The notes: generated from the letters alone by a model not told the origin. Counted from the stretch's first letter, positions 18,858 through 31,268 are shown. The stretch is 64,000 nt of DNA from a virus (IMGVR_UViG_3300035698_010625:32001-96000), one strand, 5' to 3'. Program-made: numbers and translations.

Positions 18858-18876
18858 ATAATAAGTTTTCATTGGT

Positions 18877-18951
18877 GTGGCCGTGGCCGAATGGTTTAGG
18901 TGCCTGACTGTGAATCAGATTATATGGGTTCAATTCCCATCGGTCACCCCA
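18877..18951 (+). tRNA. tRNA-His(GTG)
   Basis: cloverleaf, CT-GTG-AA loop, C73 plus CCA. Confidence 0.92.
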
Positions 18952-18966
18952 ATGAAAATTTACAAT

Positions 18967-19043
18967 GCCCTTCTAGCTAAACTGGACAAGGCCCTCGGCT
19001 ACGAACTGAGAGATTGAAGGTTCGAATCCTTCGGAGGGTACCA
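18967..19043 (+). tRNA. tRNA-Arg(ACG)
   Basis: cloverleaf, CT-ACG-AA, CCA. Confidence 0.92.
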
Positions 19044-19223
19044 TATTAAGGAGTTTGTTATGAGTAAATGGGATTACCCCAAGACTAAGAAGAATTCTGA
19101 TGGAGCAAAACTGACTGCTGCTGAATTACGCGCACAAAGAAAAGCTCATCGGAAAGCAATTAAAGCTACTGCTCATACTGAACTCAAGACGAAGAAAAAT
19201 AAAGATCAAATTAAGTAACAATT

Positions 19224-19300
19224 GGGTGCTTCGTATAACGGCACATTATGTCGGACTCTTAATCCGAACGATCTGGGTTCGAATCCCAGGGTACCCACCA
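19224..19300 (+). tRNA. tRNA-Lys(CTT)
   Basis: TCGGA-CT-CTT-AA-TCCGA, CCA. Confidence 0.92.
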
Positions 19301-19315
19301 AACAAAGGTATTATT

Positions 19316-19588
19316 ATGGAATTCACTGCTGAACTTGCTAAACAAATAGTTGAAGAAGATCATGATGATTGGGAACAAGTTAATGAAGAATCTTCTAATT
19401 CTTCCCGATGGCATACTCATTACAGTGGTGTTTATAAAAATACATTAACTGGAAAATACTATGAATTTATTTGGCAGCGTGGTTCTACTGAATATCAAGA
19501 TGAAGGTACAGAATTTTACACTGACCCAATAGAAGCTGTAGAAGTTATTGAAAAATCAGTAACTGTAATGCGCTGGGTTGCTGTTTAG
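19316..19588 (+). CDS. hypothetical protein
   Basis: MEFTAELA...RW...GSTEYQD; true start lies after tRNA-Lys. Confidence 0.65.
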   Translation: MEFTAELAKQIVEEDHDDWEQVNEESSNSSRWHTHYSGVYKNTLTGKYYEFIWQRGSTEYQDEGTEFYTDPIEAVEVIEKSVTVMRWVAV

Positions 19589-19683
19589 TTTGTACGCGGA
19601 CGGTACTGCTTGGCAGTCCACTTGAATATCTTGTGGGTCACTGCACAGTCCGGGTTGAAGAACCTTAAACTTAACTAACAATT

Positions 19684-19759
19684 GCCGGTGAAGCAATCAG
19701 GGTATTGCAACTCGTTGTCTGCGAGAGATAGGAGGGTTCGAGTCCCTTCATCGGCGCCA
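19684..19759 (+). tRNA. tRNA-Asp(GTC)
   Basis: cloverleaf, TT-GTC loop, GCCA. Confidence 0.85.
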
Positions 19760-19765
19760 ATTTTT

Positions 19766-19841
19766 GGGGGATTAGCTCATCTGGGAGAGCGTCTGTTTTG
19801 CAAGCAGAAGGTGATCGGTTCGAGTCCGATATCTTCCACCA
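19766..19841 (+). tRNA. tRNA-Ala(TGC)
   Basis: G3:U70 pair, TT-TGC-AA, ACCA. Confidence 0.93.
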
Positions 19842-19876
19842 TTTTACTAGAAAGATTCATATACTTTCTAGACATT

Positions 19877-19954
19877 CGTTCGGTAGCTCAGCCTGGTTAG
19901 AGCACCCGTCTGATACGCGGTAGGTCGAAGGTTCAACTCCTTCTCGAACGACCA
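19877..19954 (+). tRNA. tRNA-Ile(GAT)
   Basis: cloverleaf, CT-GAT-AC, ACCA. Confidence 0.88.
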
Positions 19955-19959
19955 ATTTA

Positions 19960-20199
19960 AAGAGCTTAGGTGTAGAAACGAGAATGCACCTTTAAGAAAA
20001 CCTTGTTGCTGGGCTACCCGATAAATCATCTTCTCAGATGTATGCAACACAAACTTCAGCTCTTCCTTTTGTACTGTCATGCGGGGTCGCCTCGGTGACG
20101 AAAGTGCTAGCGGGTACCGTCTTAGTAACGGTTTCACGAGGTGCAGGACCTCGGGGGTTTTCAGTTTCCACAATCGGGCTAGCTAAAACTGAAGTACAA
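19960..20199 (+). ncRNA. candidate ~240-nt two-domain pseudoknotted RNA
   Basis: AAGAGCT/AGCTCTT and TTGTACT/AGTACAA closing stems, internal hairpins, cross-domain complementarity. Confidence 0.6.
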
Positions 20200-20211
20200 T
20201 TTTATTACAAT

Positions 20212-20288
20212 GCTACGTTCGTCTAATGGACTAGGACTCTGGGTTTTCACTTCAGATAATATCGGTTCGAATCCGATACGTAGTACCA
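20212..20288 (+). tRNA. tRNA-Glu(TTC)
   Basis: TT-TTC-AC loop, CCA. Confidence 0.9.
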
Positions 20289-20296
20289 ATTTCAAT

Positions 20297-20372
20297 TCCT
20301 AGTTAGTATTCTTGGTGAGCACGGGTGACTGTTAATCACTTCAGGTAGGTTCGAATCCTACACTAGGAGCCA
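20297..20372 (+). tRNA. tRNA-Asn(GTT)
   Basis: CT-GTT-AA loop, GCCA. Confidence 0.92.
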
Positions 20373-20378
20373 AATCAA

Positions 20379-20453
20379 TGAGAGTTTAGTTCAAGTTAGA
20401 ACATCTGGCGCAATAGTCAGAAGATGCTGGTATCGAATCCAGTCCCTTTCACC
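20379..20453 (+). pseudogene. tRNA-like gene with aberrant anticodon loop
   Basis: D and T arms present; TCTGGC/GTCAGA stem with 6-nt loop; no CCA. Confidence 0.55.
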
Positions 20454-20460
20454 GAATAAT

Positions 20461-20546
20461 GGATGTGATGTACCGGTGGTGGTATAGCGGGCTGTAACCC
20501 CGTGGCTCTTATGGGCGAGTAGGTTCGACTCCTTCCACATCCACCA
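20461..20546 (+). tRNA. tRNA-Tyr(GTA)
   Basis: CT-GTA-AC loop, long variable arm, ACCA. Confidence 0.9.
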
Positions 20547-20634
20547 ATTTCGTTGGCAGTAAGGTCACGCATTGAGATTGACCTCCTAGTAATAGGTACC
20601 TGATGGGTAAATTAAAAAGTGCGATTTCAAATTC

Positions 20635-20712
20635 CGGTGATTAGCTCAGCCTGGTTAGAGCTCTCCGTTTGGGGCGGAGTTGCCAGAGGTTCGAATCCTC
20701 TATCACCGACCA
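20635..20712 (+). tRNA. tRNA-Pro(TGG)
   Basis: CTCCG-TT-TGG-GG-CGGAG, ACCA. Confidence 0.93.
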
Positions 20713-20805
20713 ATAACTAATTATCTAATGTGCTTGCCGGCATATGCGGATGATTGCACGAACTTCTATTGATAACAAGCGGTAACTTGTAATCATAAGA
20801 TGAGT

Positions 20806-20870
20806 TAATTAGTAGTTTAACGGTAGATCGCCTGGCTGGAAGATGCGGGTTCGAATCCTGTCTAATTACT
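20806..20870 (+). pseudogene. tRNA-like gene lacking a proper anticodon arm
   Basis: TAATTAG/CTAATTA acceptor, D arm, GCGGG-TTCGAAT-CCTGT T arm, truncated middle. Confidence 0.55.
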
Positions 20871-20885
20871 TTCGTGATTTACAAC

Positions 20886-20960
20886 AGTTCCTTAACTCAG
20901 AGGCAGAGTATCGCTTTTACACAGCGAAGGTCGAGATTTCGAAATTCTCAGGAACTACCA
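20886..20960 (+). tRNA. tRNA-Val(TAC)
   Basis: TCGCT-TT-TAC-AC-AGCGA, ACCA. Confidence 0.9.
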
Positions 20961-21027
20961 GTAACTAATCAACAGCTCGATGGGAGTCTTGCTATTTGAT
21001 TGCACAGCGTCTTACTCCCATAAGATT

Positions 21028-21098
21028 TATTGATAGTGTAATGGATGCACACTGGGGTTTAAACCTGGAAGTACGGTTCGATTCCGTGATTAATAACT
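21028..21098 (+). pseudogene. tRNA-like gene with TTA in the anticodon position
   Basis: AT-rich acceptor, CTGGG-GT-TTA-AA-CCTGG, GGTTCGATTCC T arm, no CCA. Confidence 0.5.
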
Positions 21099-21148
21099 TG
21101 GGCTGTGATTTACAAATCGCTTGAGCAACTGCTCGCGTACAATACAAT

Positions 21149-21236
21149 GGGAGTGTGGTGGAATTGGTATACACATTGGTCTTAGAAACCAACGACTGTA
21201 ATGGTCACGCAGGTTCGACTCCTGTCACTCCTACCA
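21149..21236 (+). tRNA. tRNA-Leu(TAG)
   Basis: CT-TAG-AA loop, long variable arm, ACCA. Confidence 0.93.
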
Positions 21237-21242
21237 ATCAAT

Positions 21243-21310
21243 GTTCGATTAGCATAATGCAATGCGGCAAGTACTTGTAGAAGAAAGCTCGAATCTTTCA
21301 TCGAACTCCA
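21243..21310 (+). pseudogene. tRNA-like gene with collapsed anticodon loop
   Basis: GTTCGAT/ATCGAAC acceptor plus TCCA; anticodon arm reduced to GCAAG-TA-CTTGT. Confidence 0.6.
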
Positions 21311-21319
21311 AATTTAAAC

Positions 21320-21393
21320 GCTCAATTAGTTCAATGGTAGAACAACGGCCCGGTAAGTCGTTAACGTAAGTTCGATTCTTACATTGAGCACCA
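21320..21393 (+). tRNA. tRNA-Thr(GGT)
   Basis: ACGGC-CC-GGT-AA-GTCGT (C33), ACCA. Confidence 0.82.
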
Positions 21394-21399
21394 ATTAAT

Positions 21400-21476
21400 G
21401 CCCGGTTCGTCTAAATATTAGGACCTCTGCCATATTTGAGCAGAAAATAAAAGTGAGATTCTTTTACCGGACACCA
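21400..21476 (+). pseudogene. tRNA-like gene with 9-nt anticodon loop
   Basis: TCTGC-CATATTTGA-GCAGA; degenerate T loop; ACCA. Confidence 0.55.
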
Positions 21477-21482
21477 AACAAT

Positions 21483-21555
21483 GCCAAGGTCGTCTAATAA
21501 TCTAAGACCCTCTCGTGATAGAGAGAAATGAGGTGTAAATCCCCCCGAGGCACCA
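21483..21555 (+). pseudogene. tRNA-like gene with 6-nt anticodon loop
   Basis: CTCTC-GTGATA-GAGAG; imperfect acceptor; ACCA. Confidence 0.5.
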
Positions 21556-21561
21556 AACAAT

Positions 21562-21637
21562 GCTGGAGTCGTCTAACGGCTAGGACTTTACATTCTCAGT
21601 GTAAACAATGCGAGTTCGAATCTCGTCTCCAGTACCA
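21562..21637 (+). tRNA. tRNA-Glu(CTC)
   Basis: TTACA-TT-CTC-AG-TGTAA, ACCA. Confidence 0.9.
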
Positions 21638-21642
21638 AATCT

Positions 21643-21729
21643 GGATTGATCCGCTGGGTAGGCCGGCAGCACGGTTTGAACCCGTGGGTGACCGAAAGGT
21701 TAGGGGTTCGACTCCTCATCTCTCCGCCA
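21643..21729 (+). tRNA. tRNA-Ser(TGA)
   Basis: CACGG-TT-TGA-AC-CCGTG, long variable arm, GCCA. Confidence 0.85.
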
Positions 21730-21735
21730 ATTTTA

Positions 21736-21812
21736 TCCTTCGCTCGTCTAATGTTAAGACACCAAACCGTGGAGGTTTGGGGATAGAGGTTTGATTCCTT
21801 TGCTTAGGACCA
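21736..21812 (+). pseudogene. tRNA-like gene with extended anticodon stem
   Basis: CCAAACC-GTGGA-GGTTTGG; imperfect acceptor; CCA. Confidence 0.5.
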
Positions 21813-21965
21813 ATTTTAATGACTACTTCCTATACGTAGGTTAATAACTGAAAAGTTAAGAGTGGTCACCAAGTTATCCCACACTCATCGAATGGTACGG
21901 TAAACGTTAAGAAACGTTTCGTGGGGAGTTTATCAGAAAGCCGTGACAGATAGACAACTAACAAT

Positions 21966-22039
21966 AGCTGCATAGCATAGTGGTAATGCGGGGGTCTTTG
22001 AAACCTCTCAGTAAGGTTCGATTCCTTATGCGGCTGCCA
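21966..22039 (+). tRNA. tRNA-Gln(TTG)
   Basis: CT-TTG-AA loop, GCCA. Confidence 0.9.
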
Positions 22040-22125
22040 ATTTTGATGTGGATATAATCTATCCCTTGTGCGGGTGCCCCTAGTAATAGGTCAAGGCAGC
22101 AAACTGCTCACATCAGATTTAATAT

Positions 22126-22212
22126 GGAAGATTAACTAGACAGGGTTCTAGAGCTGTTTGCTAAACAGATGGTACCGCAAGGTATGAGTTTCGAATACTC
22201 AATTTTCCGCCA
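22126..22212 (+). tRNA. tRNA-Ser(GCT)
   Basis: TT-GCT-AA loop, long variable arm, GCCA. Confidence 0.88.
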
Positions 22213-22241
22213 AACATAAAGAAAAATTAAGTATTAACAAT

Positions 22242-22316
22242 GGGACTCAGGTGTAACTGGGTGCACGGCGGACTTTTAATCCGTAAGGACAGGGTTCAAG
22301 CCCTGGGGTCCCACCA
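22242..22316 (+). tRNA. tRNA-Lys(TTT)
   Basis: GCGGA-CT-TTT-AA-TCCGT, ACCA. Confidence 0.88.
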
Positions 22317-22403
22317 AATGTAAATGGAAATGCTTCGGCATTGTAAAACTCACCGAAAGGTTTCCACCCAAGTGTGGATATAAAGAAGTTCCGATTAGTC
22401 AAT

Positions 22404-22477
22404 GCGTCTAAGTACAAGGTGTATCCTCGGGTTTCCAACCCGTAGTGAGTGGGTTTCGATTACCCCTAGTCGCTCCA
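22404..22477 (+). tRNA. tRNA-Gly(TCC)
   Basis: TT-TCC-AA loop, TCCA. Confidence 0.82.
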
Positions 22478-22482
22478 ACAAT

Positions 22483-22555
22483 AGTTATCTAGCTCAACTG
22501 GCAGAGCACTAGCTTCATACGTTAGGGAATCTCGGTTCAAATCCGAGGGTAACTA
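22483..22555 (+). tRNA. tRNA-CAT (elongator Met or Ile2)
   Basis: CTAGC-TT-CAT-AC-GTTAG; CCA not encoded (CAA). Confidence 0.85.
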
Positions 22556-22561
22556 CAATCT

Positions 22562-22569
22562 TATAAATA
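22562..22569 (+). promoter_or_regulatory. T4-type late promoter
   Basis: TATAAATA upstream of the 22596 ORF. Confidence 0.7.
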
Positions 22570-22595
22570 CTCTTTTAATAAACGAGTATCAGAAA

Positions 22596-22850
22596 ATGCA
22601 AACTTTTAAAAGTTTCACCGAAGGAAATGTCGTTAAATTTCCTAAGAAGAAAAAACAAACCCACGATGAAATTACTGGATTGCCAATTGATTCACGTCTT
22701 CCAGATACCCCAGACGAATGGATGGTTGTATCAAAGGATGAGAGTGTAGCATATAGCACTTCACCAACTCGTCAAGAAGCACAGAAAAAACTTAAGACGT
22801 ATATGATGAAGACAGGTAAGAGAGATCTTAAAGTCATCAAATTTGGCTAA
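22596..22850 (+). CDS. late hypothetical protein with capsid-targeting-like N-terminus
   Basis: MQTFKSFTE; late promoter upstream. Confidence 0.6.
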   Translation: MQTFKSFTEGNVVKFPKKKKQTHDEITGLPIDSRLPDTPDEWMVVSKDESVAYSTSPTRQEAQKKLKTYMMKTGKRDLKVIKFG

Positions 22851-22855
22851 GATAA

Positions 22856-22887
22856 TCCTCGCCAAGAAGGTCTAAACCATATATAAT
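22856..22887 (+). promoter_or_regulatory. sigma70-like promoter
   Basis: TCGCCA-17-TATAAT; near-identical to 29425-29453. Confidence 0.7.
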
Positions 22888-22898
22888 GATATAACAAA

Positions 22899-22970
22899 GC
22901 GGGTATAGCTCAGTGGTAGAGCGGAACGTTGCCAACGTCCAGGTCGAGAGTTCGAATCTCTCTACCCGCT
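22899..22970 (+). tRNA. tRNA-Gly(GCC)
   Basis: canonical cloverleaf, TT-GCC-AA; CCA not encoded. Confidence 0.92.
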
Positions 22971-23606
22971 CTAATTTAGGATTATATGATGAATTTGGGA
23001 CTAACAAGTGATTGTGAGGCAGAAGCATATTTTGATAGCGCTGATACTTACATCAAACAATACAACGCTACTTATATGTTTGAGAATAGTTCTGCGAGAG
23101 TCCGAACTATCATTGCTGAATATTTTGCTAATCTAGATAATAAAACTATTTGGCTTTGGAAAACTAAGAGTGATTGAATCATGCGCCTTATCATTTCGCG
23201 GACTAACAATGACAGCACTTTGGACTTCGAAGTTCATGATGCACGTTGGGTTACTTTTAGTGATAAAATGAAAGCATTTGCTTGGACTCGTCCGGGTAAT
23301 AAGCTTGGAATTTACTTCTCCGAGGAATATGTCAATCGCCGCTTTGTGAACATCTTTTGCATTAGCGCGCTTGAGAACATGCACTGGCAGGTTAAGTGAG
23401 GATTACATTATGTGGATTCGATTTGAAGAGAAACAACCCAAACAAGATAAAGACCTTTATTACTTCTTCGATGTAGTAGGTGTTCACTCAGGGCGCTATT
23501 ACGGCGGTGATACATTTCAAGGCCGAAGAGGTTTTCTCAATGGTGACGTTACTCATTGGCAATATGATAAAGGGCAGGGAAAACCTGCTGAACCAAAATG
23601 AATAAT

Positions 23607-23683
23607 GCAAGAGTGGCTCGACTGGTGAAGGCCGGCGTCTTATATGCGTCTATATGTGGGTTCGAATCCCGCCTCTTGTACCA
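23607..23683 (+). tRNA. tRNA-Ile(TAT)
   Basis: GGCGT-CT-TAT-AT-GCGTC, ACCA. Confidence 0.82.
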
Positions 23684-23691
23684 AAATATTT

Positions 23692-23768
23692 CAGGGTATA
23701 AGTCAGTCTGGTAGACACCCCGGTTTGGAACTGGGAAGCCGTTGGTTCGAATCCAACTACCCTGACCA
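23692..23768 (+). tRNA. tRNA-Pro(TGG), second copy
   Basis: CCCGG-TT-TGG-AA-CTGGG, ACCA. Confidence 0.9.
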
Positions 23769-24034
23769 TTTAAAGAGAGTACATTATGCTTACATTCAAT
23801 ATTAAAGATTTCTTTTGTTGGCATAGTATTCAAAAAGAAGAGTCATTTGAAGCTTTTCATGCAAGAGCAGAAGCACTGCATGAAACTTATCAACATTGGA
23901 CTCCTGTAAATGAAATTGAAAGAACAAATAGAGCAGTATGTTTTGTATCTTTTATTAACAATCACCCAAAAATCGTAAATCCATATACTGGTAAAACAAA
24001 AAAACAATTTTCTTTAACGGAATATCCTATATCT

Positions 24035-24058
24035 ACCTTGTCTTAAAGGTTGTATAAT
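24035..24058 (+). promoter_or_regulatory. promoter with ACCTT-N6-AAGGT palindrome
   Basis: ACCTTGTCTTAAAGGT then TGTATAAT. Confidence 0.6.
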
Positions 24059-24069
24059 GATTATTCAAT

Positions 24070-24145
24070 ACACGGTAAGCAATTATGGTTAATGCGCTGG
24101 CTTGAAGTCCCAGATAACTAAGTTCGATTCTTAGACCGTGTACCA
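24070..24145 (+). tRNA. tRNA-Phe(GAA), divergent
   Basis: TT-GAA-GT loop with C:C mismatch closing it; ACCA. Confidence 0.7.
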
Positions 24146-24168
24146 ATTTATTATGGAGTGACTGTGAT

Positions 24169-24870
24169 ATGTTTGCTGATTTTTGCACTGATCATTTCTC
24201 GACGAGTAACAATGCACATTACAGAAATCCGCGAACTGTTGACCAAAATGTAATTGCTAATGAGACAATGCTATTTAGCGCATCTCCAGAATTTGCTACT
24301 GCAAATGGTGGCCCACTTACTGCTTACTTTCTCTCCAAGCTTTTTGATGGTGGATTTGAAAGCATTGATACTCGAGGAATGCATTGGGTCATTGATACTC
24401 GCTCGCACATGCTGATGCCAGGTCAATTTCCTTCTATTCCAGGTTGGCATTGTGATGCTTGGGAGCGAGATCCAAAGACACAACAACCACTTTTATGGCA
24501 GCACCCACATGGTACCGCTATGCATTTTGTAATGACACTTGGTACTAATGATGATGGTGTATCACTTACAAAATTCATACTTCCTTTTGGTGTGCCGATT
24601 CGTGTATCTTACGATCCATCCAAAGTTTGGGGTTCTGTAAACGAATCAATTGAACACCAAATTGAAGATCTCGTTATATCACCAGATAGAATTATTAGTG
24701 CGCCTTCAGGGACACTCATTTCGTTTGGACAAAACATATTACATACGGCTAGTGTAGCTACCAGTAAAGGCTGGCGCTTCTTTGCTCGTATAAGTTTAAT
24801 GACAAATCCACCACTCAACAAAATTCGAAAACAGGTACAAGTTTACGCTGATTCAAATGTTGGTTGGTAA
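24169..24870 (+). CDS. 2OG-Fe(II) dioxygenase-like phage protein
   Basis: PGWHCD (HxD), distal H (LHTA) and R.F.R strand pattern. Confidence 0.6.
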   Translation: MFADFCTDHFSTSNNAHYRNPRTVDQNVIANETMLFSASPEFATANGGPLTAYFLSKLFDGGFESIDTRGMHWVIDTRSHMLMPGQFPSIPGWHCDAWERDPKTQQPLLWQHPHGTAMHFVMTLGTNDDGVSLTKFILPFGVPIRVSYDPSKVWGSVNESIEHQIEDLVISPDRIISAPSGTLISFGQNILHTASVATSKGWRFFARISLMTNPPLNKIRKQVQVYADSNVGW

Positions 24871-24959
24871 ATGAATTAAGGGAAACGTTGGTTCGAGTCC
24901 AACTCCTGCGCTGGTGCAAAGGATCGTAATTGATGGCCAAGACACCCTTACGTTACAAT

Positions 24960-25033
24960 GTTGATATGGCAGAATGGTTATGCCGTGGCTTGCAAACCCA
25001 CTTACTCTGGTTCGATTCCGGATATCAACTCCA
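24960..25033 (+). tRNA. tRNA-Cys(GCA)
   Basis: TT-GCA-AA loop, TCCA. Confidence 0.88.
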
Positions 25034-25285
25034 AGATAAGGCTTTAGCCGCAGCAGAGTAGTCAGGCATGACATAAAAGGTCGAAATGAAAAAGTTTAGC
25101 CGGCTCGACCAGCTTTATTTCTGAGTTCAAAGGTGGTCCTGAGCACGATGGATATGCACCAATTGTAAAAAATGTCTGTGATGGTGATTATACCGAATTC
25201 TCAGTTTGTTTGGAATGTGGTACTCTGAAAGGTACTTTCCCGGTTGATGATCCTGTTTGGAATGATGAAGAAGAAGATTAACAAT

Positions 25286-25358
25286 GCGCCGCGCTCTGGG
25301 TAAGCAGTATGGTTTCCAATGCCTCGCGTGTGGAGTTCGATTCTCTGGCGGCGTGCAC
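25286..25358 (+). pseudogene. degenerate tRNA (Trp CCA- or Gly-like)
   Basis: GCGCCGC/GCGGCGT acceptor and T arm; weak anticodon stem; no CCA. Confidence 0.5.
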
Positions 25359-25380
25359 CTGTAATAGATTAAAGAATAAT

Positions 25381-25456
25381 AAGAGTATAGTATAATGGCT
25401 CATTACCCCGGGCTCTGAACTCGGTAATCTAGGTTCGAATCCTAGTACTCTTGCCA
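25381..25456 (+). tRNA. tRNA-Gln(CTG)
   Basis: CCGGG-CT-CTG-AA-CTCGG, GCCA. Confidence 0.92.
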
Positions 25457-25463
25457 AATATAC

Positions 25464-25538
25464 GCCTGCTAAGCATTAATGGTGATGCACTGGTTTTGTA
25501 ATCCAGAGAAGAGGGATCGTTACCTTCAGTCGGCACCA
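25464..25538 (+). tRNA. tRNA-Thr(TGT)
   Basis: TT-TGT-AA loop, ACCA. Confidence 0.85.
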
Positions 25539-25541
25539 AAT

Positions 25542-25615
25542 CGCGAGATGTTGAAATGGCATCCTGCTGGGCTCATAACCCTTCGTTGGCGGTTCAACTC
25601 CGTCTTTCGCTACCA
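25542..25615 (+). tRNA. initiator-type tRNA-fMet(CAT)
   Basis: C1 mismatch, GGG/CCC anticodon stem, CT-CAT-AA, ACCA. Confidence 0.8.
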
Positions 25616-25728
25616 ACTTTGTGAGATCGTCAAGTGTAATTATGTTAAAGCCCGAGATGATGACATTACAAAATGTACGAATCGGTTAATCTTTAACTAG
25701 CACAAGGGACATCTCACAAACTTTTTTA

Positions 25729-25870
25729 TGTTGTAACTGCAAGGATAATGCAGGGTGGTTGGAGAGCTTGTGAGGGTGTACAACCTTTTATCCACAGGTA
25801 TAAAGTTAGCTTTAACAAATCGAGGCGCTTTATAAATCTCTAGTGAAGTTCGATTCTTCATTACAACACT
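25729..25870 (+). ncRNA. tRNA-like RNA with ~85-nt insert in place of the anticodon arm
   Basis: TGTTGTAA/TTACAACA acceptor, CTGCA/TGCAG D-like arm, TGAAG-TTCGATT-CTTCA T arm. Confidence 0.55.
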
Positions 25871-25876
25871 TTCAAT

Positions 25877-25964
25877 GGGAGTATGGTGGAATTGGTATAC
25901 ACAGCAGACTTAAAATCTGCCGCCTGTAATGGGCTCGGGGGTTCGAATCCCTCTACTCCTACCA
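25877..25964 (+). tRNA. tRNA-Leu(TAA)
   Basis: CT-TAA-AA loop, long variable arm, ACCA. Confidence 0.94.
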
Positions 25965-26117
25965 AATTAAGGTAAATATGATGCAGGAAACAAGCACTAA
26001 AACTATAGCAGATAAAGAAGCATTGATTCTGTCTGCTGGTGAATGTTATCCAGATACATCTAGTTTTATACGAGATGAAGTTGTGAAAGACATTAATTTT
26101 AAGCTAGTTGATAAGAT

Positions 26118-26393
26118 GTGGGGCAAATAACGAGTGTTGCTCATGCTCCAACCTTCATATACAATGGTGAATGTAAACCTTGTGTAAGTAGGTTGTACCG
26201 TAGCTATTTGAGATACACTTATATAACTGCTGCACACATTAATGCACTGGTGTATGACATGGTAGTGGAATTAGATGATTTACTTATAGATGCTTCTGAA
26301 TTTCACCCATATATGATGGCGATACCACAATTAGCTGAAGAAGAATATATTGAATTTAATCGAATTGCATTCAAACTTCGATTTGCATTTTAA
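26118..26393 (+). CDS. hypothetical protein
   Basis: ORF between tRNA genes. Confidence 0.45.
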   Translation: MGQITSVAHAPTFIYNGECKPCVSRLYRSYLRYTYITAAHINALVYDMVVELDDLLIDASEFHPYMMAIPQLAEEEYIEFNRIAFKLRFAF

Positions 26394-26404
26394 AGATTAA
26401 CAAT

Positions 26405-26479
26405 GCCCCGGGTGTTGGATACACAGCAGAGGTTTCTACCCTCAGCCTTCTGGGTTCGACTCCTAGTCGGGGTACACCA
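26405..26479 (+). tRNA. tRNA-Arg(TCT)
   Basis: TT-TCT-AC loop, T arm GGTTCGACTCC. Confidence 0.8.
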
Positions 26480-26492
26480 TTTAAGGTTCATT

Positions 26493-26771
26493 ATGAAATA
26501 TCTTCTTGAGTTGTATTGGATGTGGAGGGACCGCCAAAGAGCAGAAGCTGAACTCGATAAATTCATAGCTGTTAAAAAGTGGGATGCTAGCATTCGTTGG
26601 AATAATGACAAATCGGTTGAAAACATTCTTTATATTGGTCTTGAAAATGGCCGTGGTGAACGTAAAATACAAATTCATGATTATGGATTAACCCGTACTT
26701 ATTCTAAGTCGAAGGCCCATCTCATTTATACAAAGTACGTTTTGCCATGGCAGCATAAAATAAATGAATAA
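26493..26771 (+). CDS. hypothetical protein
   Basis: MKYLLELY start after tRNA-Arg. Confidence 0.55.
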   Translation: MKYLLELYWMWRDRQRAEAELDKFIAVKKWDASIRWNNDKSVENILYIGLENGRGERKIQIHDYGLTRTYSKSKAHLIYTKYVLPWQHKINE

Positions 26772-26773
26772 TA

Positions 26774-26805
26774 ACCTTTATCTTAAGGTCCTATATTGAT
26801 ATAAT
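26774..26805 (+). promoter_or_regulatory. promoter with ACCTT-N6-AAGGT palindrome
   Basis: ACCTTTATCTTAAGGT; TTTATC-17-TATAAT. Confidence 0.6.
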
Positions 26806-26877
26806 ATACTTATTGGAACGCACCTATTTTGCTGTCAACGCAATGTTGGCTTTTTTGTAATTAAACGGGGATACATT

Positions 26878-27702
26878 ATGATTACGCGAAACAAATTGGC
26901 TGTTGCTATTCTTGCTGCAGTTTCCATTACTACCGCAGCACACGCATCTGAAGTTACTACAATCACCGCTGGCTCCAAGGGCGGTGCATACGCTACTTAT
27001 GGCAACAATCTTGCAACTATGCTCACCCAGAATGATTGGAAGAGTAAGGTTATTCGCAGTAAGGGTTCAATTCAGAATATTGCCCGTCTTGTAGATGGCT
27101 CAGCACAAATTGGTTTCACCCAGGGCGATGCTTTGCAGCTCTCAAAGGCTGGTGGTAAGATTGATATTCTTGGAGCACTTGGAATGGAATGTGCTTTCAT
27201 TGTTTACAGTAAGAAGGGTAAGGTCACTGACGAAGATCATCTTCAGAATGAGGGTGTGAAAATTGCTGTTGGTAAGAAAGGTACTGGTTCACAAGCAACG
27301 TGGTCTTACATGGTTCAGCTAGAACCTGCATACGGTAATGCATCTGCACAGTATACTGGCGGAGCTCGCGCACTTGGCGCACTCAAAGCAGGCACTGTTG
27401 ACGCTGTTCTCTTTGTCACCGATCCCACTAATCTGAGTCATAAGCTTATTCAAGCAGTAAATGGTGATCCAGACCTCGATTTTCTAGACGTTGATGACAG
27501 TGACTTGAATGATGATCTACCTAATGGCACGCCTGTCTATGAATTCAAAGAAGTTGACACTGAAACGGGTGCTTTCGCGGATGACGTAGATACTATCTGT
27601 ACGCCTTTGCTAGTAATTGCTAGTGCAGATGCTGACGAAGACATGCTTGATGATGCTGCAGGAATTATGCTAAGCAATCGCAATGCGGTGCTTGGTAAGT
27701 AA
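26878..27702 (+). CDS. TAXI-family TRAP transporter solute-binding protein-like, secreted
   Basis: signal peptide (AHA-S), TAGSKGGAY, SKGSIQNI, IGFTQGD, VGKKGTGS. Confidence 0.8.
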   Translation: MITRNKLAVAILAAVSITTAAHASEVTTITAGSKGGAYATYGNNLATMLTQNDWKSKVIRSKGSIQNIARLVDGSAQIGFTQGDALQLSKAGGKIDILGALGMECAFIVYSKKGKVTDEDHLQNEGVKIAVGKKGTGSQATWSYMVQLEPAYGNASAQYTGGARALGALKAGTVDAVLFVTDPTNLSHKLIQAVNGDPDLDFLDVDDSDLNDDLPNGTPVYEFKEVDTETGAFADDVDTICTPLLVIASADADEDMLDDAAGIMLSNRNAVLGK

Positions 27703-27725
27703 CAATGCAAAAGATAGTCGTTCCC

Positions 27726-27925
27726 AAGTTAGTACTTAATCGCTCTACGGAGAGGAAAGTCGGGACAAGCGGCATGATCGTGTGGGAGGAGTTAACTCCG
27801 CTTTACCACCGTGACATAGCTTGCAACACAAACAGGATTAGACAAATTGTGCATCAATGATATCCGGGTTGTGGCCAATAGACGAATGATAGCATAGAAC
27901 AGGATCCCGCTTACGGATTACTTAC
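27726..27925 (+). ncRNA. rnpB: minimal RNase P RNA (catalytic domain, S-domain largely absent)
   Basis: CR-I GAGGAAAGTCGGG (27752), CR-V ACAGGATCCCGCTTA (27899), P4 AAG[T]CGGG/CCCGCTT, TAGACGAATGA (27879), P5 CAAGC/GCTTG, P15 CACAA/TTGTG with GGT. Confidence 0.85.
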
Positions 27926-28212
27926 TACTTACAAGGAGCAAATGATGAGCAAGGTATACCCTCACTCAAGCACTAAGCAACGCGAACGATACGTGAAACA
28001 AAACGCTATTAAAGGCGAACGCTCTATCGGGCAAACTGATGCTTCAGTAGGCTGGTATGGACTTACAGTAAATTGGAAAGCTATTGTGCGTGGTGCACCG
28101 TGTTACATTACAACTAACTAAAAGGAGCAAGATATGCGCTTGATGAATTTAGAGCACCTCCTTAAATTGTGATTTTTGGTAAAACACTAATTCACACTTA
28201 AGGAAACATCTA

Positions 28213-28590
28213 ATGAAAATCACTTATCTCAAAATTAAAGTAAAGTCACTAGCAGCAGAGTCACGCATGATCCGCCAAGAGGAGTTGAAACTCAAACGTC
28301 GATACCAGGCGATTAAACTGTTGGACAATCAGTATGACACTGCAGCAGAAGAGGGAGACATAAGGTCTACTCGTTTAGGTCTTTATGAACACCGTACAGA
28401 TGATGTACGTCGAGAGTCGCGTGTAGCTAATATTGCTTACGGTCTACTTCGAGGAAGAGAGTATAGCAAAATTGAGCGAGGAGTTCGGGAGTTTAATCAA
28501 CCGAAATGGACACGCGTTACAAAGTTGATTGAGAAGTATTCAAACAGTGAGGAGCAGAAGGTTAAAGCTTTTCAACTGATTGAGCAGTAA
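28213..28590 (+). CDS. conserved phage hypothetical protein
   Basis: LKIKVKSLAAESRMIR...HR...R..NIAYGLLRG..Y..IE. Confidence 0.7.
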   Translation: MKITYLKIKVKSLAAESRMIRQEELKLKRRYQAIKLLDNQYDTAAEEGDIRSTRLGLYEHRTDDVRRESRVANIAYGLLRGREYSKIERGVREFNQPKWTRVTKLIEKYSNSEEQKVKAFQLIEQ

Positions 28591-28598
28591 ATATCATG

Positions 28599-28624
28599 AC
28601 GGAGCGCTTCGGCGCTCTCGTTTT
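28599..28624 (+). terminator. intrinsic terminator
   Basis: GAGCGC-TTCG-GCGCTC followed by T-run. Confidence 0.75.
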
Positions 28625-28693
28625 GGCTGACACGGTGACTACCTGGCTTTCAATCCAAAGGAGTTTAGGGTTCGATTCCCTTATCAGCCACCA
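28625..28693 (+). pseudogene. tRNA-like gene with reduced D arm and 8-nt anticodon loop
   Basis: GGCTGA/TCAGCC acceptor plus ACCA, AGGG-TTCGATT-CCCT T arm. Confidence 0.55.
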
Positions 28694-28838
28694 AATTTTA
28701 GGAGAGGCATTATGAGTATATTTGCTTGGATTGTTTTTCCATTTTTATTCCCCGTGGTTGTCGCAATGTTTTGGGTGCTGACACATGTGGATCCATACAC
28801 TGGTAAGGTTCATTGGAATCTTACGTGGTAAACGATAT

Positions 28839-29128
28839 CATGTAGTAGTTTAAATGTTGGCATTATGAGGAAAGGTGAAGATTATTTGAAAGTAAAATTA
28901 AGTTAGTAGCAATTCTGTAGTGGTGATGTAACGAGACGTGTAGGTAAAAACGTGAGCCAAATGAAAGATTGGACAGGCATCATCATCGAGGGCGTTGCGA
29001 ATTCTTCTTTTGAACCCTTTAATTAGTAACCTTTACTTACGTGTCACACGGAAAAACGCTAGGAACCCCCCCGCTTACGCGTCTCTTAATCCTGGATATC
29101 CACGGTTCAATACCGGGCTACATGGCCA
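28839..29128 (+). ncRNA. ~290-nt RNA closed by a tRNA-like acceptor/T-arm/CCA
   Basis: CATGTAG/CTACATG-G-CCA, T arm CGG-TTCAATA-CCG, internal 12-bp helix GAGACGTGTAGG/CTTACGCGTCTC. Confidence 0.65.
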
Positions 29129-29152
29129 ATTTCTTGAAACGGAGTTTATAAT

Positions 29153-29398
29153 ATGAATGATTATTTTAATGCGTTTATTATGATTTTGGTTATAGCGATA
29201 GTAACAAATGTTGGTTGGATTATTAATTATGATGATCTTAAAACACTTCATGAAAAGGCGTTAAGTATTCATAAGATTGAAGTCATGCAACATAGACAAG
29301 CTATTTGTCGTAGTGCAACAGCTGAACACGCAACTAATACTGCTACACTCTTCGAAGCAATCAATAAGCTCAATTCTGCTGCTAAGGCTGCAGAATAA
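29153..29398 (+). CDS. small membrane-anchored hypothetical protein
   Basis: GGAG RBS, N-terminal TM segment. Confidence 0.55.
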   Translation: MNDYFNAFIMILVIAIVTNVGWIINYDDLKTLHEKALSIHKIEVMQHRQAICRSATAEHATNTATLFEAINKLNSAAKAAE

Positions 29399-29421
29399 TT
29401 TACTTTAATGGCATAAGATAT

Positions 29422-29453
29422 ACCTTGCCAAGAAGGTCGAAACCATATATAAT
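29422..29453 (+). promoter_or_regulatory. sigma70-like promoter with ACCTT-N6-AAGGT palindrome
   Basis: TTGCCA-17-TATAAT. Confidence 0.8.
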
Positions 29454-29459
29454 GGTACT

Positions 29460-30348
29460 ATAATCTGAACACAAACTAATAGATTGGGTCGCGTGGGATC
29501 CATAAGATAAGTAGCAGTAATGTTACGAAAGGCTATCTCATTTACGGATAGCGCCACTTTTATGAAGGTGGACATCTACGCAAGCCAAGCTCTTTACGGG
29601 TACCTCCGGGTGCTCTGGAAGATAAGTTGTGACCGACAAACACATCCAGGCCAACGGTGAGGATGATAGATTCCGCAAGAATCTCGGGTCAAGCAAAAGC
29701 AACGAACTTCAATGAGCAAAGGGTAGATTGAAAAGTTAAGCTTGCAGGTAAGGCTTTCAATCAATACGATAGGTGAAAGAAGATACAGCCTTCTGGAATC
29801 TAGAAATATTGCTAAGTAGCTCGCAAGGCGAAAGGTACGAGGTGGGTGGTATTTGGTAACTCAAAGGTTATTGAGCCACAGGCATTCGCTCATCTTAAAA
29901 TGTAAATATGTAAACGGAATAGGGGAATAGGTACACCCGCCCGGCCGCCAAAGCCAGGATCTGTTGGTTCGAATCCAACTTTCGTTATCAACTTTGTATT
30001 GATAACAAATCTTAAATGCAAAGACGAATGCCACCGTGAAGTGGAAATTGCTTAATCCTCAAACCCATAGGGTAATTGAGGTTCAGGATGCTCGCAAGGC
30101 GGATTGAATTAGTTGGAGTCACAGGTAAATTCTTAGCGGAGTTACACAGCCCAGCAAGGCTGACCGGTCGATGAATGCTGAAAAGCTCGCGGATAGAGGA
30201 ATCGCTACCTCTTTAAACAAAGCAGCAATGGTTGATTACTATGCCGCTCTTCGGAGGGTAAAGTGGAAAAGAGAAGAACCTAGCGGATCGCACCGTGTGG
30301 ATAATTTCTCGAAGGATCAACTGCATATGAGTATATTCTCAACTCATC
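29460..30348 (+). ncRNA. GOLLD-like giant structured RNA with embedded tRNA-like element
   Basis: ~890 nt with no credible ORF, many GCAA/GAAA/TTCG-capped hairpins, located in a tRNA array, terminal hairpin ATGAGT-ATATTCTCA-ACTCAT, tRNA-like insert at 29913-29990. Confidence 0.7.
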
Positions 30349-30452
30349 TGTTTACTTATGGCAGGTTGTACGTTCTCTGCCTTAAACGTACTGGCTTTCT
30401 GGGGAGGCTCAGATAACCGGGTAGTTCACCTAACTACCTGCCATAAGTAAAT
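30349..30452 (+). ncRNA. multi-branched small RNA or terminator with 15-bp closing stem
   Basis: TTTACTTATGGCAGG/CCTGCCATAAGTAAA enclosing three hairpins. Confidence 0.5.
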
Positions 30453-30557
30453 AGGAAGATAATATGAACATTGATAAAGTTGAACTTCAGAAGATCTTTC
30501 TTGAAGTTTTTACTAAACACCCAGAAGCTGCAAAGATTTTTCTAAAGGGTAATAACT

Positions 30558-30857
30558 ATGAGCACGACCCCTACAAGAAGTTTGAGAGTTGAAAGATCAT
30601 ATACAAATAAGTTTAACCAAGTAATTGAAGTTGGTGATGAAGTAGTATTTGTTGCAACTTCTTGGGGTGGTACTGATATTCGCCAAGGTGTTTATCTTGG
30701 ATATTACCCACGCACTGGTTGGGATGGTCGCCCTGCACTTCATGCTGCTAGTGTATCATACATTGGTAAGGAGTGGGATGGAAGAAAATGGATTGACGAT
30801 GCAGTACTTCATTCTGTTCTTGAACTCGGTCGTGTTTTCAAAATTGAGAAAGTATAA
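30558..30857 (+). CDS. hypothetical protein (paralog of next gene)
   Basis: N..NQ.IEVGD.V...R.G.Y.GY...FKI shared with 30857. Confidence 0.65.
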   Translation: MSTTPTRSLRVERSYTNKFNQVIEVGDEVVFVATSWGGTDIRQGVYLGYYPRTGWDGRPALHAASVSYIGKEWDGRKWIDDAVLHSVLELGRVFKIEKV

Positions 30858-31174
30858 TGGCATTCCTCGAAGAGTCATTTGTCAATGAAATCGGGCAACG
30901 TATTGAAGTTGGGGATCGTGTAATAGCGGTCGCACATGGATACAATCTCAACTGCCGTCCTGGTATCTATGAAGGTTATCACAGTCATGGCGAACAATAT
31001 TATACTATCTCACAACTTGTAGAAACTGCAGATGGTGGGTTTAAGAAAGATGAACGTGGTAATTATGTGAGATATACGAAAAAACATTATTACATTCGAA
31101 TGTTACATCGCGTATTGTACGATGAAGGTTGGCGTGGAATACTTCAGAATGGTAACATTTTCAAAATTGCATAA
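30857..31174 (+). CDS. hypothetical protein (paralog of previous gene)
   Basis: NEIGQRIEVGDRV...RPGIYEGY...FKI. Confidence 0.65.
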   Translation: MAFLEESFVNEIGQRIEVGDRVIAVAHGYNLNCRPGIYEGYHSHGEQYYTISQLVETADGGFKKDERGNYVRYTKKHYYIRMLHRVLYDEGWRGILQNGNIFKIA

Positions 31175-31178
31175 CAAT

Positions 31179-31268
31179 GGCATTGTGGTGGAACTAAGGT
31201 ATACACAGCGTCTTCAAAAGCCGCCGGTCTTTGAGACTATGAGGGTTCGACTCCCTCCGATGCTACCA
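31179..31268 (+). tRNA. tRNA-Leu(CAA)
   Basis: TT-CAA-AA loop, long variable arm, ACCA. Confidence 0.9.

Follow-up and report, generated by a model that had tools for sequence, protein, structure and literature searches.

A stereotyped WCAAU leader in a viral RNA island is most likely a lineage-specific form of a short, G-free RNase P leader

Results

The RNA island and its recurrent leader word

The window analyzed in this study is the whole 64,000-nucleotide stretch of DNA spanning bases 32001-96000 of a 105.6-kb viral contig (IMGVR_UViG_3300035698_010625) that belongs to a T4-type phage and is 59% complete. It contains an RNA island on the + strand (18877..31268), in which ARAGORN, Rfam and predicted folds revealed 29 tRNA genes and about 12 tRNA-like genes interspersed with small open reading frames (ORFs). 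Many of these RNA genes are immediately preceded by the pentamer (A/T)CAAT, or WCAAU in the transcript, which is the subject of the present work. The island is located between genes encoding a family-B DNA polymerase of T4 type (42% identical to a cyanomyovirus gp43), a gp44-like clamp loader and PhoH. Our gene set comprised 41 genes, namely the 29 tRNAs found by ARAGORN, all on the + strand and with start coordinates that agree with Rfam, and 12 tRNA-like elements recognized using Rfam, relaxed ARAGORN or cloverleaf folds.

The initial annotation of this sequence had reported the pentamer ending at -1 of 17 gene starts, and all 17 check out. With one more instance that was missing from that list, ATCAAT before the tRNA-like gene at 20380, the word lies exactly at -1 of 18 of the 41 genes (13/29 canonical, 5/12 tRNA-like). 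Given a background of 0.0040 occurrences per position across the window (0.0048 within the RNA island), only 0.16 of the 41 genes would carry the word by chance (binomial P=1e-32), and the enrichment over the AT-rich background holds for the canonical genes alone (P=4e-24) and for the tRNA-like genes alone (P=8e-10). A scan of offsets from -25 to +15 returned 18 matches at -1, two at -2 and no more than one at any other offset. Our results therefore confirm and slightly extend the original observation.

Column counts from -6 to -1 (W 38, W 37, C 22, A 32, A 29, T 34; n=41) yield the leader consensus WWCAAT, with G in at most 2/41 genes in each column, and near-variants occur among the other leaders (AATAAT three times, TTAAT, CAAC, CAAA). 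CAAT behaves as a coupled word, as 18 instances were observed vs 10.1±1.8 when the columns were shuffled independently. Only three pairs of gene bodies share at least 74% identity (two among the three tRNA-Leu genes and one Ile-Pro pair), indicating that the instances are essentially independent and not a by-product of recent duplication. At least 16 of the gene bodies that follow the word are unrelated, and upstream of -6 there is no conservation.

All instances are on the + strand. Among canonical genes, ACAAT ends at -1 of tRNA-Arg(ACG) (18962..18966, gene 18967), tRNA-Glu(TTC) (20207..20211, gene 20212), tRNA-Leu(TAG) (21144..21148, gene 21149), tRNA-Glu(CTC) (21557..21561, gene 21562), tRNA-Gln(TTG) (21961..21965, gene 21966), tRNA-Lys(TTT) (22237..22241, gene 22242), tRNA-Met (22478..22482, gene 22483), tRNA-Cys (24955..24959, gene 24960), tRNA-Arg(TCT) (26400..26404, gene 26405) and tRNA-Leu(CAA) (31174..31178, gene 31179). 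TCAAT takes this place before tRNA-Asn (20292..20296, gene 20297), tRNA-Phe (24065..24069, gene 24070) and tRNA-Leu(TAA) (25872..25876, gene 25877). The word was also said to be offset by one base at two genes, and both do carry CAATT: ACAAT followed by one extra T precedes tRNA-Lys(CTT) (19218..19222, gene 19224) and tRNA-Asp (19678..19682, gene 19684).

Many spacers consist of just CCA-A(A/T)CAAT-G. The word makes up the entire 5-nt spacer between the preceding CCA and tRNA-Met, the whole spacer from the previous CCA to tRNA-Asn reads ATTTCAAT, and the spacer before tRNA-Glu(CTC) is CCA-AACAAT. Furthermore, spacers that contain CAAT run from 5 to more than 200 nt, and the word holds a fixed position relative to the downstream +1, not to the upstream CCA; it is found alike after tRNAs, ORF stop codons and long non-coding gaps. 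An encoded CCA ends 32/41 genes (24/29 tRNAs and 8/12 tRNA-like genes) and is followed by a stereotyped trailer, CCA-A-(A/T)-T, whose first base is A in 28 of the 32 CCA-ending genes vs 49% of 506 phage tRNAs. Trailer A and A(-3) of the leader are correlated across phage arrays (rho=0.52, p=0.012).

The tRNA-like genes

Most of the tRNA-like genes fold as cloverleaves with acceptor stems of 5-7 bp, and the Rfam tRNA model at E<=10 misses 8 of the 12. The initial annotation stated that the word also precedes tRNA-like genes, and this holds for five of the 12: TCAAT at 20375..20379 (gene 20380; Rfam tRNA, 28.9 bits), TCAAT at 21238..21242 (gene 21243; 7-bp acceptor stem and CCA end), ACAAT at 21478..21482 (gene 21483; spacer CCA-AACAAT), TCAAT at 22399..22403 (gene 22404) and ACAAT at 25281..25285 (gene 25286; 7-bp acceptor stem without CCA). 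The leader of gene 21483 may simply have been inherited with the neighboring tRNA-Glu unit. Non-decoding, tRNA-shaped RNAs likewise lie inside the tRNA arrays of T5 (rna1, rna2 and rna3) and T4 (rnaC and rnaD), where they are annotated as stable, thereby providing a precedent by annotation for the expression and processing of the tRNA-like genes of the window. By analogy, it is plausible that the latter RNAs are made and processed at their 5' ends.

Comparison of the leaders with bacterial RNase P preferences

E. coli RNase P RNA (P RNA) reads N(-1) and N(-2) of the leader, A(-2) being strongly preferred and U(-1) contacting A248 of J5/15 (PMC5602109). The protein subunit of RNase P binds N(-3) to N(-6) in E. 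coli, with bacterial contacts described as far as N(-8), and a contact with N(-4) has been defined in B. subtilis and T. maritima; pairing of the leader with the 3' ACCA (RCCA) acts as an anti-determinant (PMC5602109). In the account given by this source, the leader determinants are traced to Zahler 2003, Koutmou 2010 and Niland 2017.

The bacterial preference for A(-2)U(-1) that was invoked in the initial annotation is thus a published one, and T(-1) is present in 34/41 and A(-2) in 29/41 genes of the island, in a word that stands directly 5' of +1. The leader is also non-complementary to RCCA, since G occurs in at most 2/41 genes at each position from -6 to -1 and C or A occupies -4 in 31/41. 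From T(-1), A(-2) and the absence of G, we conclude that the word fits an RNase P leader. The window genes thereby share U(-1), A(-2), G-avoidance and an encoded CCA with bacterial substrates, and the P RNA encoded in the window retains, as in bacterial P RNA, the elements for reading -1 (J5/15) and CCA (L15). In contrast, cellular leaders are far more variable, whereas a single coupled four-letter word is found on about 45% of the canonical tRNAs here.

Folding predictions gave the native leaders a mean unpaired probability of 0.79 vs 0.62 for random hexamers of local composition (Wilcoxon p=8e-5) and 0.71 for WWWUAU (p=0.03). These predictions support a single-stranded leader only modestly.

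Short G-poor leaders in other phage arrays

Our whole comparative sample covered about 900 phage tRNAs, which are part of the collection. Within it, an independent set of 638 tRNAs from 105 IMG/VR loci was seeded on a T-loop-to-CCA pattern irrespective of P RNA, and yielded the consensus W-T-A-T, with T(-1) in 60%, A(-2) in 58%, T(-3) in 49% and G in 3-8% of genes at -1 to -4. Other phage arrays thus also have short, G-poor, A/U-rich leaders ending in AU, which often make up the entire 3-9-nt spacer after an encoded CCA, and several sampled arrays are as stereotyped as the window but with ATAT or TTAT (for example ATAT in 10/14). The usual phage word is (A/T)TAT, and CAAT accounts for 2.4% of the 638 leaders, not above the independent-column prediction, vs 45% of the canonical tRNAs of the window, the highest frequency among the arrays examined. 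It precedes 0.7% (2/281) of bacterial tRNAs.

The CAAT word is shared, at 9-20%, by T5, Vibrio phage 6E35-1b, a jumbo phage represented by a 278-kb contig (G001) and an array on contig L061, and CCA-AACAAT also occurs in T5. These comparisons show that short, stereotyped, G-free leaders ending in AU are a general property of phage tRNA arrays, and that CAAU is a minority dialect, strongest in the window phage, with C(-4)A(-3) as its lineage-specific part. CAAT precedes tRNA-Gln(UUG) in all four CAAT-using phages; an association of the word with tRNA-Gln or with a +1 other than G was considered and rejected across 866 phage tRNAs (Fisher p=0.14 and 0.86, respectively).

A search with the junction GTTCGAATCC-N11-CCA-WWCAAT-G matched many bacterial clades, including Gamma-, Beta- and Alphaproteobacteria (several Pelagibacteraceae), Planococcus and others, and pointed to no host clade. 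The bacterial junction is followed by a tRNA in only 12/120 loci, and the 281 bacterial tRNAs mentioned above are the other tRNAs of those loci. No close relative of the window phage was found using three proteins against IMG/VR, one protein against metagenomes, or a P RNA-specific DNA pattern against metagenomes, the latter returning only other phages with a mini-P RNA.

We also observed that tRNA-His (18876-18951; C73) has T and not G at -1, implying that G(-1) is not encoded by the genome here. T5 and Vibrio phage 6E35-1b likewise have T(-1) on tRNA-His, and most other sampled phage tRNA-His genes have G(-1).

The leader word does not follow the reduction of phage P RNAs

The window contains a 202-nt RNase P RNA-like gene on the + strand (27728..27929; Rfam RF00010, 38.3 bits, E=1.5e-10, below the gathering score of 100). 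P1-P4, GCAA of J5/15, GGGU of L15 and CR-IV/CR-V align, while most of the S-domain is missing, and this RNA is one candidate enzyme for the CAAT leaders. The gene lies between two ORFs, and TAACAAT|G occurs at 27701-27707, 20 nt upstream of its predicted 5' end and over the stop codon of the preceding ORF, where a lone copy is within chance (about 0.004 per position).

An exact search of IMG/VR for the CR-I variant GAGGAAAGTCGGGA returned many viral contigs with an RNase P RNA inside a tRNA array. P RNA genes were found in IMG/VR and metagenome contigs that we labeled L003, L014, L025, L047, L051, L056 (held by the jumbo phage contig), L058, L061, L071, L085, L106, L113 and L393-L397, and phage P RNAs proved to be graded in size, from about 160-200 nt up to 354 nt, scoring 61-268 bits on RF00010.

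The initial annotation had proposed that the five-letter word makes up for the S-domain that the mini RNase P lacks, an idea that calls for a comparison of phages with and without this RNA. CAAT was enriched in the jumbo phage, whose P RNA is 342 nt long and scores 268 bits (9/44, P=3e-13; coupled, p=0.001), and in Vibrio phage 6E35-1b, for which no P RNA was detected in the whole record or in a permissive 18-kb scan of the array (5/26, P=3e-7). The word also occurs in L061, with a 252-nt P RNA (4/21), and in T5, which has no P RNA (2/23, as CCA-AACAAT twice). In contrast, it is absent from phages with reduced P RNAs: 0/26 in L003 (200 nt), where the spacers read CCA-T, CCA-TAT or CCA-TAA, 0/21 in L071 (250 nt), and none in L393-L397, which have about 160 nt between CR-I and CR-V (including 0/28 in L396). 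Across these phages, the CAAT word does not track loss of the S-domain, which contradicts the proposed link to the mini RNase P. Further phage P RNAs measure 354 nt (L106), 280 nt (L051), 277 nt (L014), 265 nt (L085), 263 nt (L047), 247 nt (L025) and 236 nt (L058).

Pairing between the leader and the mini P RNA was also considered. The sole complement is AUUG at 27847-27850, within a hairpin at 27845-27860, and it is absent from the equivalent region of the jumbo phage P RNA; because that phage uses CAAT leaders, AUUG was rejected as a reading element. A search of the literature available to us on phage-encoded RNase P RNA or phage leader motifs returned nothing relevant.

Several phage P RNA genes have tRNA genes as neighbors on either side, only 0-8 nt away (L003, 12072-12271; L047, 293-555; L058, 352-587; L061, 8366-8617; L106, 351-704), unlike that of the window. 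The ends of such P RNAs would therefore arise from tRNA processing, the 3' end being cut by RNase P itself. The smallest P RNAs (window, at 27770-27815; L003, L025 and L071) share a conserved insert, about 45-70 nt long and placed between the strands of P5, which, read by eye, takes the form GGU(G/A)GGAG-hairpin-...ACCG(A/U)G and may be a minimal replacement of the S-domain. Contigs with reduced P RNAs also carry tmRNA beside their tRNA arrays (L014, 1822-2187, 132 bits; L003, 6-363, 101 bits).

Other features of the island

Rfam also revealed a GOLLD RNA (29839-30345). The two best sigma-70-like promoters of the island, at 22859-22887 (11 nt before tRNA-Gly) and at 29425-29453 (the GOLLD promoter), share a near-identical stretch of about 30 nt, CCAAGAAGGTC-N-AAACCATATATAAT. 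ORF-poor gaps of 65-260 nt separate some tRNA genes (19955-20211, 20961-21027, 21813-21965, 22040-22125, 22317-22403 and 25616-25796). Rfam returned no match in the ORF-poor gaps between tRNA genes of the window, and these gaps may contain further structured RNAs.

Discussion

We favor, with moderate confidence, the view that WCAAU is a selected single-stranded RNase P leader that also serves as the spacer between tRNAs. Most likely, this lineage has its own form of the short, G-free leader preferred by RNase P, and the word is not a tag for a mini RNase P. WCAAU would be the stereotyped pre-tRNA 5' leader of this phage, and often the entire spacer CCA-A(A/T)CAAU-G, kept by selection for a good single-stranded RNase P context at each of the roughly 40 cuts that long polycistronic transcripts require. 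A bacterial-type P RNA reads U(-1) and A(-2), while a leader lacking G would be unable to pair with the encoded 3'-RCCA, which the L15 loop of P RNA must bind. Positions -3 to -6 fall within the binding zone of the RNase P protein, so that C(-4)A(-3) would reflect the preference of the enzyme or enzymes used, which may include, besides the host holoenzyme, the phage P RNA with a host protein. Because the word is one base off at 19224 and 19684, it does not appear to set the position of the cut, and would instead aid cleavage.

We infer that RNase P cuts at these sites and that C(-4)A(-3) matters for this cleavage. With spacers of 3-9 nt, RNase P is the obvious separating enzyme, and as promoter-like sites occur at chance level, long transcripts that require endonucleolytic processing are likely. 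Furthermore, the tRNA bodies are unrelated, save for the three pairs with at least 74% identity, which argues that the leader was not simply copied along with the genes.

Several observations weigh against this interpretation. The leaders depart from U(-3), which is optimal for the E. coli holoenzyme, as A(-3) is found in 32/41 and T(-3) in 7/41 genes, although this optimum is enzyme-specific and not a universal requirement. Nor does A(-3) agree with the general phage consensus, in which T(-3) reaches 49%, and C(-4) has no published rationale. The predicted gain in accessibility over G-poor, AT-rich hexamers is small (0.79 vs 0.73, p=0.07), and a search with Pfam PF00825 gave no match to a phage RNase P protein in the 59%-complete contig. 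Finally, the coupling of the four letters of CAAT (18 vs 10.1) is not predicted by independent preferences at each position, and could point to a different reader or to copying of the spacers.

Copying would require no function at all, the word having spread by tandem duplication, unequal recombination or gene conversion of tRNA junctions, or in tRNA cassettes exchanged between phages. It would be expected to produce the four-letter coupling, and it is consistent with the identical CCA-AACAAT junction found twice in T5, with the paralogy of the three tRNA-Leu genes and with CCA-AACAAT-GC before both 21483 and 21562, which are clearly duplicated units. Yet the word stands before at least 16 unrelated gene bodies with no conservation upstream of -6, follows ORF stop codons and long non-coding gaps, and shows independent enrichment in unrelated phages with different tRNA bodies, the polymerase of the window having no match in the jumbo phage. 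Copying therefore accounts for a few adjacent units and not for the whole pattern, and we consider it unlikely as a general explanation. The coupling, together with a C(-4)A(-3) that lacks an RNase P rationale, would also be compatible with a reader other than RNase P, such as another endoribonuclease or RNA-binding factor of host or phage origin, or with a role of the word as the 3' trailer of the upstream RNA, for example in controlling exonucleolytic trimming to CCA. The stereotyped 3' flank (CCA then A in 28/32), its correlation with A(-3) (rho=0.52, p=0.012) and the occurrence of the word 20 nt ahead of the P RNA gene, a place without a tRNA, point in this direction. Nonetheless, the analysis revealed no candidate nuclease, and a lone site ahead of the P RNA is within chance. 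In addition, over spacers of 5 to more than 200 nt the word keeps its place relative to the downstream +1 and not to the upstream CCA, and a trailer role cannot be general given that many instances follow ORFs or long gaps; such a reader thus seems quite unlikely. We find it decidedly unlikely that CAAU is a discrete word at -4 to -1, read by a phage-adapted RNase P that would give phage precursors kinetic priority over those of the host. This enzyme would combine the phage P RNA with a host protein or with some phage protein, and the code would have arisen or spread in several unrelated phages, namely the window phage, the jumbo phage, KVP40-like Vibrio phages and L061, with the tRNA-like RNAs being prioritized too.

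The proposal that the word is a private tag read by a P RNA without an S-domain, replacing recognition of the T-loop and D-loop and favoring the processing of phage pre-tRNAs and tRNA-like RNAs, has in its favor that the window combines the top CAAT frequency (45% vs 2.4%) with a 202-nt P RNA-like gene, and that CAAT is coupled and not the sum of four independent preferences. The P RNA of Pyrobaculum is of type T and lacks the S-domain, and Nanoarchaeum equitans transcribes leaderless tRNAs. These archaea are precedents for an altered specification of tRNA 5' ends when recognition by RNase P is reduced or lost, and they underlie the idea that a tag could make up for a missing S-domain. However, the archaeal adaptation consists of short or absent leaders and not of a sequence tag, and the tag of the window does not follow S-domain loss across phages: the word is used alongside a 342-nt P RNA (9/44) and where none was detected (6E35-1b, 5/26; T5, 2/23), is missing from the other phages with reduced P RNAs (L003, L071 and L393-L397), and has a single complementary stretch, AUUG at 27847-27850, which is not conserved in the P RNA of the jumbo phage. 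We therefore regard a private tag as highly doubtful.

Least credible, and in our opinion very improbable, is that WWCAAT (TACAAT, AACAAT, AATAAT) is a -10-like promoter or start-site element that leaves tRNAs with a very short leader or none, as in Nanoarchaeum. T4-type phages use the host sigma-70-type polymerase. These hexamers do resemble TATAAT, two scan matches use the motif as their -10 element (21121-21148 and 24930-24959), and tRNA-Gly (22899) and tRNA-Phe (24070) have TATAAT 11 nt upstream of +1, so that their primary leaders are probably only about 3-5 nt long. We defined a sigma-70 -10 element as TAnnnT with a -35 partner 16-18 nt upstream and an end 6-8 nt before the 5' end of the RNA, and the motif does not conform to this definition. 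With a -10 element that ends at -1, transcription would begin within the tRNA, at about +6 to +8. The second base of the hexamer is T in 6/18 instances, and only 2/18 have a -35-like partner, for which the 5-8-nt spacers that follow a tRNA leave no room. In addition, the scan returned 39 sites vs 34.4±5.2 in shuffled sequences, which is chance level.

Phage tRNA arrays, in which dozens of mature RNAs have to be cut from long transcripts, use short, highly stereotyped leaders whose words differ between phages, mostly (A/T)UAU, and CAAU here and in a few others. If C(-4)A(-3) alters the kinetics of RNase P, the arrays that use CAAU would offer a natural and testable case of substrate ranking encoded in the leader, and the word would also help to annotate precisely where odd tRNA-like RNAs begin. 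If it has no kinetic effect, the word would represent an ordinary bias of RNase P leaders. In both cases, the comparison across phages removes the suggested link between this leader and a mini RNase P.

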